Assembly: GCA_951406725.2 (NCBI GenBank)
Contig: OX597833.1
Coordinates: 64,356,001 to 64,420,000, forward strand
Direction: 5' to 3'
DNA from: Octopus vulgaris
Lineage: Eukaryota
Length of the DNA stretch: 64,000 nt
Made by a program: the position numbers and the translations under genes. Of the stretch, positions 39,210 through 42,599 are shown one piece after another; the stretch's first letter is position 1, and each line of letters begins with the position of its first letter. The notes under the pieces are model-generated. The model was not told the DNA's origin. It did not search any database and saw only the letters and a list, made by a program, of their open reading frames with translations.

Positions 39210-39525
39210 GATAGATAGATAGAGAGGTAGATAGATAGATAGATAGATAGATAGAAAGATAGATAGATAGATAGATAGATAGATAAATAGATAGATAGAT
39301 AGATAAATAGATAGATAGATAGATAGATAGATAGATAGATAGATAGATAAATAGATAGATAGATAGATAGATAGATAGATAGATAGATAGATAGATAGAT
39401 AGATAGATAGATAGATAGATGGATGGATGGATGGATGGATAGATAGATAGATAGATAGATAGATAGATAGATAGATAGATAGATAGATAGATAGATAGAT
39501 AGATAGATAGATAGACAGATAGATA
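39210..39525. repeat. (GATA)n array with AATA and GATG variants
   Basis: Direct reading. Confidence 0.96.
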
Positions 39526-40535
39526 TGTTTCTTTATTAGCCACACAGGGCTGCACACAGATAGAACAAATTACAAGGTAGAGCTTTTCTTTTGAAGGTTT
39601 AAGAAAAAAAAAAAAAAAAAAAAAAAAAAAGGAAGGGGGAGTTTCGATCAAAAGGGATCGTAAAAGGAGAGAAAGAGGACAAAAAAAAAAGGGGGTTTAA
39701 AAAAAAAAAAAAGGGGGGGGAGGAAAAAAATTGATCAATAGGGATCGTTATCACAGAAATGTCAATATGAAGTGTAAAGGGGAGGACAGGTGAGGTTTAC
39801 CCGTGCAAAGAAAAGCCTACGGAAAAGACCACGGTAACCTCGGTCAATGAAGTCACATTTTATATTTCTTTTTTTTTTTTTTTTTGCAAATAAGCAACTC
39901 TCTGTTTTCGATTTCTGGGTTCATAGGACTATGCTCAAGGTGGCTTCGTCATTCATACGTGCCATTCTTGCTACATTCACCCATCTTTTTTTAAAACATT
40001 CGCTAGACAAAACTTGCCTCTCTACTCTCACTTTCCTTTTCAAGTGGTACTTGAAGAAGTTGATGAGAGATTGACCAGAGAGGAAAGTGTTTGTCTCCAA
40101 TCCTTTCAGACGCGTCCACCAGATACATTCTTTCGCCATAGCCACAAGGATGATGAAAATAGCTCTTCCTTCCCGTTTGAAGGAAGGAGGCGTGACAATA
40201 TTGACGATAGACTCAGCTGATAAACCGACTCGTCCCACACGTGACAGCAGTTGTTCGACACAAGCCCACAGGTCGGAAATTGTTGGACACTGAACGAGTG
40301 CGTGCAGAACGGTTTCGTCGCTCTGACCGCATCTCGGGCAGGTCGGCCCCGTGTTTCTCGAGCCGTGTCTGTAGAGCTTATCCCGAACGGGTAGCGCTTC
40401 TCGGTAGCACTGCCAGGCCAGGGATCTCTGGAAGTTGTCCATGGGCCCTGGCCCGAAAGTCGTCCTGAACAGGCGGGTCAGGTACTCCTCGTCGACGTCC
40501 AGGTTCGCCCCGAGCTCGTCGTCGTACCTCCCCTC
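39526..40535 (-). mobile_element. Tx1-like LINE copy 2 (5'-truncated; ORF2 C-terminus open to its stop at 39921)
   Basis: Homologous to 376-1335; CPRCGQSDETVLHALVQCP; GATA arrays on both sides. Confidence 0.92.
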
Positions 40536-40768
40536 AGATAGATAAATAGATAGATAGATAGATAAATAGATAGATAGATAGATAGATAGATAGATAGATA
40601 GATAGATAGATAGATAGATAGATAGATAGATAGATAGATAGATAGATAGATAGATAGATAGATAGATAGATAGATAGATAGATAGATAGATAGATAGATA
40701 GATAGATAGATAGATAGATAGATGGATGGATGGATGGATAGATAGATAGATAGATAGATAGATAGATA
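40536..40768. repeat. (GATA)n array between Tx1 copies 2 and 3
   Basis: Direct reading. Confidence 0.96.
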
Positions 40769-41339
40769 TGTTTCTTTATTAGCCACACAGGGCTGCACAC
40801 AGATAGAACAAATTACAAGGTAGAGCTTTTCTTTTGAAGGTTTAAAAAAATAAAAAAAAAAGGGGGGAGTTTCGATCAAAAGGGATCGTAAAAGGAGAGA
40901 AAGAGGGCAAAAAAGGGGGTTAAAAAAAAAGGGGGAGAGGAAAAAAATGATCAATAGGGATCGTTATCACAGAAATGTCAATATGAAGTGTAAAGGGGAG
41001 GACAGATGAGGTTTACCCGTGCAAAGAAAAGCCTACGGAAAAGACCACGGTAAACTCAGTCAATGAAGTCACATTTTATATTTCTTTTTCTTTTTTTTTT
41101 TGCAAATAAGCAACTCTCTGTTTTCAATTTCTGGGTTCATAGGATTATGCTCAAGGTGGCTTCGTCATTCATACGTGCCATTCTTGCTACATTCACCCAT
41201 CTTTTTTTAAAACATTCACTAGACAAAACTTGCCTCTCTACTCTCACTTTCCTTTTCAAGTGGTACTTGAAGAAGTTGATGAGAGATTGACCAGAGAGGA
41301 AAGTGTTTGTCTCCAATCCTTTCAGACGCGTCCACCAGA
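40769..41339 (-). mobile_element. Tx1-like LINE copy 3 (shorter 5' truncation)
   Basis: Nearly identical to the 3' part of copy 2 with scattered substitutions; followed by (GATA)n 41340-41458. Confidence 0.92.
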
Positions 41340-42599
41340 GATAGATAGATAGATAGATAGATAGATAGATAGATAGATAGATAGATAGATAGATAGATAG
41401 ATAGATAGATAGATAGATAGATAGATAGATAGATAGATAGATAGATAGATAGATAGATGTGTTTTTTTATGTATTATTTATATGACCCCGTCTATGTTTT
41501 TGTGTAGCCTCTATAAAACGTCTGGCGTACAAATACACACATATGCTGCAATTAGCAATTTGCTAAAATATAGATCAAAACATAACATAACAGAGTGACA
41601 TAACCTCGAAATTGTTGACAAAAATGTTTGGAAGTGAAATCAGTGACCCCTGTATGGACGCAAACCGATAAATAATACCAGTGGAAAATGAAAAGAATTG
41701 TTCTGGTTGTACAGCTGCCAATCAGCGGCCTTTATCTGAGACGACTTTGAGATTAACAATTAAATATTTTATCTTGCTTTGTCGAGTAACTCAGTTCAAA
41801 CAGAGCCGCACGACAGAAAGTTTCGTGATAGATTCATAGATTCGTTTCAGGAGACGCGGCAGCTGTCATCTTTTATGAATGAAGACCGCTGTGAGATGTA
41901 TATGCGTATATATATATATATATGCATATAAATATATATATATATATATATATATATATATATATATATATATATATATACATATGCATATATAAATAAA
42001 TAAAAATATATATATACATATACTTACATGTATATTTAGAGATATATACACGTGCATATATATACATGTATATATATATATATTAAGATATATATTAATA
42101 TACCGTATATAAATATTTATATAATATGTATATATATGTATCGTCGCTATATATGTATATATATATATATATATATATATATACTTACACACACACACAT
42201 CTATATTCATATATATATGTATATATATATATATATACATATATATATTTTTTCTCTCTAGTTTCAGCTCAGACCTGAATACATATATATTCCACCGTAT
42301 ACATACATACATATATATATATATATATATATATATATATATATATATATATATATATGCATAAATGGGTACAGGACGTTATCAAATGTAAACAACACGA
42401 AGTACGAAAACAAAAACGAGTGAATACGCAAAGAGCAAGAGAATAAAATAGAAACAGGACAAGTAACACATTGAACGTCCCTTTATCAGTTGTCGGCTGT
42501 CCTTCTACTCCTTATTTCGAGCATTATATATTTGCCAATGCTGTCAGTATAACGAAACGAGATACTATTAGTTTCTTGCTGTGAAGACACTTGTCTAGC

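Follow-up and report, generated by a model that had tools for sequence, protein, structure and literature searches.

The 64,000-base stretch of DNA analysed here (the window) contains three copies of a LINE, each of which abuts an array of TATC units. Copy 1 (1..1335, plus strand) is the 3' part of the element, comprising the C-terminus of ORF2 with a zf-RVT domain followed by the 3' UTR, its 5' side being cut by the window edge; the end of this copy is adjoined by an uninterrupted (TATC)13 array (1336..1390, plus strand). A blastn search of the window with positions 1-1400 returns exactly two further copies, 40535-39526 and 41339-40769, both on the minus strand, in agreement with the coordinates of the copies in the first-pass annotation. 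Read in the orientation of the element, the minus-strand locus has the following layout: unique DNA; array C (41340..41458), a pure (TATC)29-30 run upstream of copy 3; copy 3 (40769..41339; 571 bp), which is 5'-truncated within an internal TATC of the element; array B (40536..40768; 233 bp), between copies 3 and 2, with the order of variants seen in the first 249 bp of array A; copy 2 (39526..40535; 1010 bp), likewise 5'-truncated and consisting of the ORF2 C-terminus and the 3' UTR; array A (39210..39525; 316 bp), behind copy 2, in which TATC units are accompanied by a CATC block and three TATT units and whose distal end is degenerate; and unique DNA again. Array C is headed by a candidate stub of the element's 3' end (41460..41470, minus strand): these 11 nt agree with the last 11 nt of the element at 10/11 positions, an uncertain, A-rich match of a quality found seven times in 127,978 positions, three of them being the true copies.

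Relative to copy 1, copy 2 starts at position 376 and copy 3 at position 788 (blastn); such variable 5' truncation combined with a fixed 3' end is a trait of the L1 superfamily. Copy 2 retains an open frame of 204 codons for the ORF2 C-terminus (zf-RVT in Pfam, E 1.8e-8) and has AATAAA 6 nt before the element end. In copy 1 the frame is interrupted by a stop at codon 227 and by a 1-bp gap near 918.

At the 3' ends of all three copies AATAAAGAAACA stands directly before the TATC units and poly(A) is absent, which bears out the earlier claim that the copies end at the same base and in the same repeat phase. The same-strand TATC array reported at the 5' junction of the truncated copies is present at both of them (2/2), and both of these arrays end in TATCT; at the 5' junction of copy 3 the last T (41339) is common to the array and the element's internal TATC. 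The window therefore has the same repeat on both sides of the element (3/3 3' junctions and 2/2 5' junctions, with copies 2 and 3 possibly not independent). Kojima reportedly calls microsatellite targeting when the same repeat is present on more than 20% of flanks. TATC arrays unattached to the element cover 463 of the 64,000 bases of the window, or 0.36% per strand (all arrays, 1.9%); hence, the association of the element with TATC goes far beyond chance. Both assessable 5' junctions (2/2) have same-strand TATC in the same phase, the chance of such a flank being 0.36% per strand. None of the four other TATC arrays of the window is preceded within 200 bases by an element end: free TATC targets are thus available in it. 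The train of copies 3 and 2 as a whole is not flanked by a visible target-site duplication.

Arrays A and B have in common a CATC block followed by TATT(TATC)4TATT, a pattern found in none of the six other TATC arrays of the window (0/6). To judge from these variants, array B is probably a ~240-bp duplicate of part of array A. As the pattern is common to both, the 5' junctions of copies 2 and 3 are not clearly two independent events: the likeness fits a very long target-site duplication made when copy 2 went in behind copy 3, an unequal exchange at a later time, or tails that both came from one donor. Within the window, targeting is supported by one or two independent 5' junctions, to which a contig from another run adds one more junction (see below). 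If the 11-nt match ahead of array C is a stub, an element end may stand at the head of each of the three arrays of this locus, as would be the case for tails. Neither the shared pattern nor this match was noted in the first-pass annotation.

The copies represent two subfamilies. Copies 1 and 2 differ at 36/615 ORF columns (5.9%) and at 77/344 UTR columns (22%), and of the changes among the 181 codons compared 15 are synonymous and 14 non-synonymous; the clear divergence of the copy 1 UTR noted previously is thereby upheld, and the behaviour at the 3' end spans both subfamilies. Among the 40 of 413 rows listed from the public data, copy 2 agrees with most of the public sequence at 24 of the 25 places that lie within it, which marks copy 1 as a real, diverged minority subfamily. 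Since in both subfamilies the element stops 6 nt past AATAAA and goes on in TATC units with no poly(A), the 3' junction is conserved across subfamilies. Copy 3 differs from copy 2 at 18/571 columns, many of them in homopolymer tracts, with about seven clean substitutions outside these. At four places in 788-1000 that are outside the listed rows, copies 2 and 3 agree against copy 1, and two of the places (944, 994) vary in other contigs. The differences between copies 2 and 3, with few candidates for shared private changes, do not separate the three scenarios for array B.

Parts of 1-1335 are present in twenty public runs under four organism labels. The contigs placed on 1-1350 from four runs number 36,265, 25,048, 9,047 and 1,972: on these numbers the family is very abundant, the summed depth over 1-1350 being distinct from copy number and not used as one. 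Runs with a small share were left out of the family-level evidence. None of the runs is listed as RNA; one (X14) is a putative RNA run and gives no evidence on expression. TATC also follows the element end in public runs: behind position 1347 a loose end from one run (X8; 22 contigs) goes on in TATC, and a contig from another run under another organism label (X4) has a TATC tail followed by CTACC and then by a 35-nt 3' stub of the element. Among the loose ends listed (24 of 2,566), none lies at 1335/1336 and none is a 5' truncation junction.

The sequence of the window protein supports its assignment as the C-terminus of an L1-superfamily ORF2. The zf-RVT domain is recognized in copies 1 and 2 (Pfam), the RT itself lying outside the window copies. 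Six longer relatives are 60-69% identical: four of the six have RVT_1, the combination of RVT_1 and zf-RVT occurs among them, and Argonauta hians (60% identity) is the one animal named as a source. Together with the 184-bp repeat at 3534, 45294 and 49067, presumably an Octopus repeat, this match makes an octopod the probable host. For the longest relative (P0003) the best solved structure is human L1 ORF2 (E 3e-50), with R2 at E 4e-24. In a tree of 36 C-terminal sequences, whose members are all unnamed or hypothetical proteins with no named Tx1 reference, the window copies and the longer relatives group at 100/100; in the same tree this group is sister to an unnamed lineage from contigs CAXXMW0100000xx at 98/98. 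The Tx1 layout features two ORFs, an ORF1 with a zinc knuckle and an ORF2 with APE, RT and zf domains; membership of the window element in the Tx1 clade is likely. The first-pass annotation had proposed a (GATA)n-specific Tx1-clade retrotransposon. Of this, the L1-superfamily LINE, with Tx1-like architecture in its relatives and tied to (GATA)n across subfamilies, stands; targeting by its endonuclease is the best explanation of the tie rather than a demonstrated property.

Protein searches for relatives returned no named Tx1 sequence, and atlas searches returned generic RT clusters only. Searches with the 3'-end pattern in viral contigs, and with the C-terminal alignment in contigs of metagenomes, prokaryote genomes and viruses, gave no close relatives with DNA context; a wider alignment matched 56 metagenome loci at no more than 21-49%, 47 loci of genome contigs and no locus of the viral contigs. 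Translated TATC runs in the 269 retrieved proteins were confined to four single 4-residue matches, which hold no flank information. A 3' stem-loop signal was rejected, as the last 80 nt fold no better than shuffles (z 0.6 and 1.5). One 1276-aa predicted protein (P0208) has its first 45 residues 84% like the ORF2 of the window element and the remainder unrelated: it is probably a gene-model artefact, or possibly an exonised copy.

The sister lineage (loci L057-L095, L099 and L103) consists of full-length, intact two-ORF units of ~6.4-6.9 kb belonging to several families, with AATAAAG near the end. In one of these loci (L069) a zf-CCHC domain is found in ORF1 (E 1e-5), and Exo_endo_phos and RVT_1 in ORF2, an arrangement of zinc-knuckle ORF1 and APE-RT-zf ORF2 like that of Tx1. 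The units form head-to-tail trains with no microsatellite between them: at their 3' ends poly(A) occurs in 0/33 junction strings and more element sequence comes next in 32/33, these strings being distinct from a count of events as identical ones, from overlapping loci and identical units, were collapsed. Two of the 33 had been flagged as microsatellite and were rejected as mis-picked AATAAAG sites inside ORF1. No RNA-gene target was found by Rfam in nine of these loci. At locus L078 a 5'-truncated unit is fused straight to the previous 3' end; the locus also has two identical junctions, which suggest that unit duplication occurs in the sister arrays. The window element thus shares with this lineage the AATAAA(G) near the end, the missing poly(A) and the head-to-tail trains, and differs from it in its microsatellite and its truncated copies. 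As the sister lineage stacks with no microsatellite, stacking does not need a repeat target, and missing poly(A) and stacking alone do not show repeat targeting. The CAXXMW0100000xx contigs are filed as a bacterial MAG (uncultured Arenicella sp.) and are largely LINE arrays; they look like eukaryote DNA inside a prokaryote reference genome. Another contig (L096), filed as a Metamycoplasmataceae MAG, has a distant Tx1-like LINE preceded by a complete U1 snRNA gene and followed by an A-run joined to the 3' part of a U1 gene (3036-3199, 9961-10137); this LINE is a candidate U1-inserting or U1-headed element.

Among the target-specific LINEs, Mutsu inserts in 5S genes; Waldo and Mino belong to the R1 clade and Dong to the R4 clade. 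In the available text of the sources, many elements of the Tx1 clade are target-specific, with targets that include Tx1D for Tx1, U2 genes for Keno, (TC)n for Kibi and (TTC)n for Koshi (PMC4494074), and crocodilian Tx1 families prefer (TTCC)n or (TTTC)n (PMC4494074, PMC3812793). Like Kibi and Koshi of teleosts and the crocodilian families, the window element is an L1-superfamily LINE inside a microsatellite at both junctions, and tetranucleotide targets are known there. The Kibi/Koshi-type targets have a pyrimidine-only strand, whereas (TATC)n/(GATA)n is a mixed purine-pyrimidine repeat with a TpA step; the host, likely an octopod, also differs. Other LINEs are described as targeting microsatellites, namely Waldo (ACAY), MinoAg1 (AC) and Dong (TAA) (PMC3812793): the window element would share with them repeat-specific insertion, including a tetranucleotide target, but they belong to other clades and use other repeats. 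For SART1Bm in (TTAGG)n, pairing of a target-like RNA with the nicked repeat strand has been hypothesised for priming (PMC7265360). That element has a telomeric target, is poly(A)-dependent and is of a different clade, and for the window element we infer such pairing only. Sequential insertion at a kept target is described in Drosophila as giving tandems with differing 5' truncations (PMC5932611).

The annotation of Octopus vulgaris is reported to contain 80 L1-Tx1 families covering 56 Mb, with 13 families and 421 insertions recently active (PMC13282606). If the host is Octopus, the window family may well be among these. L1-Tx1 is described as expanded and recently active in octopus, and the available text makes no mention of GATA targets (PMC8967140, PMC13282606); more specifically, GATA is absent from the main text and supplement of PMC13282606, and TATC from the supplement, in the parts available. 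A GATA target is also absent from the accessible text of PMC10294476, PMC4640811, PMC9004415, PMC3747384 and PMC8869645. We found no GATA/TATC-targeting LINE in the literature, Repbase, Dfam and the target lists in the supplement of PMC4494074 being outside this search. The earlier suggestion that GATA specificity is undescribed is in keeping with this search as regards the repeat itself, but Tx1 elements targeting tetranucleotides have already been described (PMC4494074). The feature is real and probably represents a target specificity that is new, in an element of a known kind.

The reading that we favor, and hold to be moderately probable, is a Tx1-type LINE that targets (GATA)n and is likely primed by read-through UAUC. 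The endonuclease (APE) of the element would nick existing (GATA)n arrays, giving copies in one orientation within the repeat. RNA cleavage normally takes place 10-30 nt downstream of AATAAA; as this motif lies only 6 nt before the array, cleavage would fall within the array and leave the RNA with a few terminal UAUC units from the donor site. Pairing of these units with the nicked GATA strand would prime reverse transcription, fix the phase and account for the missing poly(A). The second-strand cut may fall at the TpA step; both 5' junctions break the array after TATCT. Each insertion would keep the target on both sides, and later copies would therefore be added head to tail. Under this model array B would have come from array A as a long duplication, either at insertion or by later unequal exchange. 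The identical 3' junctions, the common 5' phase, the free arrays, the TATC ends of public contigs and the placement by domain and tree speak for targeting; against it, copies 2 and 3 may be one event, as arrays A and B share variants, and copy 3 breaks at an internal TATC, the outcome that a repeat-mediated deletion would have.

An alternative that we deem unlikely is that TATC is an element-borne tail, derived from the RNA and extended by slippage, with insertion occurring at no repeat target and the trains formed by RT jumping between RNAs or by re-insertion behind an earlier end; the element would then make GATA arrays instead of finding them. The 10/11 stub at the head of array C favors such a tail, but it is short and A-rich, and allowing for the arrays and phases tried its chance is estimated at ~1 in 1,000, or more should arrays tend to begin at A-runs. 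The X4 contig, where a stub lies directly behind a tail, the variants common to arrays A and B, as with tails from one donor, and the sister trains with no repeat spacer, including the truncated L078 unit fused to the previous 3' end, point the same way. However, interrupted arrays of 120-316 bp are long for a tail, the copy 1 array has none of the shared variants, the four other TATC arrays of the window (4/4) have no preceding element end and the whole train has no visible target-site duplication. Moreover, re-insertion behind a tail would itself be TATC targeting, so that this explanation overlaps with the targeting model. We consider it improbable that the LINE both targets and builds GATA arrays, with seeding by short tails and duplication of 200-250 bp of array at each re-insertion making it a main source of the octopod GATA load, in a self-feeding loop where the element produces its own targets.

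Least probable in our estimation is a single insertion, after which unequal exchange between the flanking arrays duplicated copy and array; a deletion reaching the internal TATC then removed the 5' part of one duplicate. The agreement of array B with the proximal 249 bp of array A in the order of variants, the break of copy 3 at the internal TATC and the mere seven or so clean substitutions between copies 2 and 3 outside homopolymer tracts are all consistent with this history, and the two identical L078 junctions suggest unit duplication in the sister arrays. It needs two extra events, however, and few shared private changes are left to mark a common origin, as two of the four candidates (944, 994) vary in other contigs; further, in the available text of PMC5932611 dimers whose units differ in 5' truncation are interpreted as independent insertions. 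On a single-insertion history the 5' array would be one observation, which could stem from a weak preference, or from better survival of copies where DNA is rich in repeats, instead of a dedicated target; the chance of a single 5' junction falling in TATC is still only about 0.4-1%.

If targeting is confirmed, (GATA)n would join the repeats at which APE-type LINEs can aim; the element would provide a natural endonuclease for comparing shifts of specificity among TC, TTC, TTTC and TATC targets; and a very abundant LINE would be linked, in a way that can be tested, to the GATA-rich repeat landscape of its host. Microsatellite targeting is already known as a strategy, and the gain lies in the specificity and the host lineage, with no new mechanism.

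The window contains several other repeats. The AATAAAG before the array at 22122 was considered as an element end and rejected, being part of an inverted repeat. This repeat (21234-22127; 894 bp, 93% self-match) has arms of ~300 bp of unique-looking DNA plus TATG and TATC runs, is centred near 21670, where TATC turns to GATA, and ends at the TATC array at 22122: it may be a foldback element or an inverted duplication associated with TATC arrays. At 35749-36576, 7650-8018 and 16916-18718 there are long (TTC)n, (TAA)n and (TACA)n arrays, the sort of repeat that Koshi and Dong target elsewhere, and no ORF2 match of the window lineage was found at them. A 184-190 bp repeat, presumably the Octopus SINE-like repeat, forms tandem arrays of 3-6 units at 3534-4088, 45294-46408 and 49067-49805 and is also dispersed as single copies (e.g. 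8457-8648 and 54774-55050). Finally, two arrays of a 155-156 bp unit (60742-61161 and 62206-62609) lie ~1 kb apart in apparently opposite orientation.
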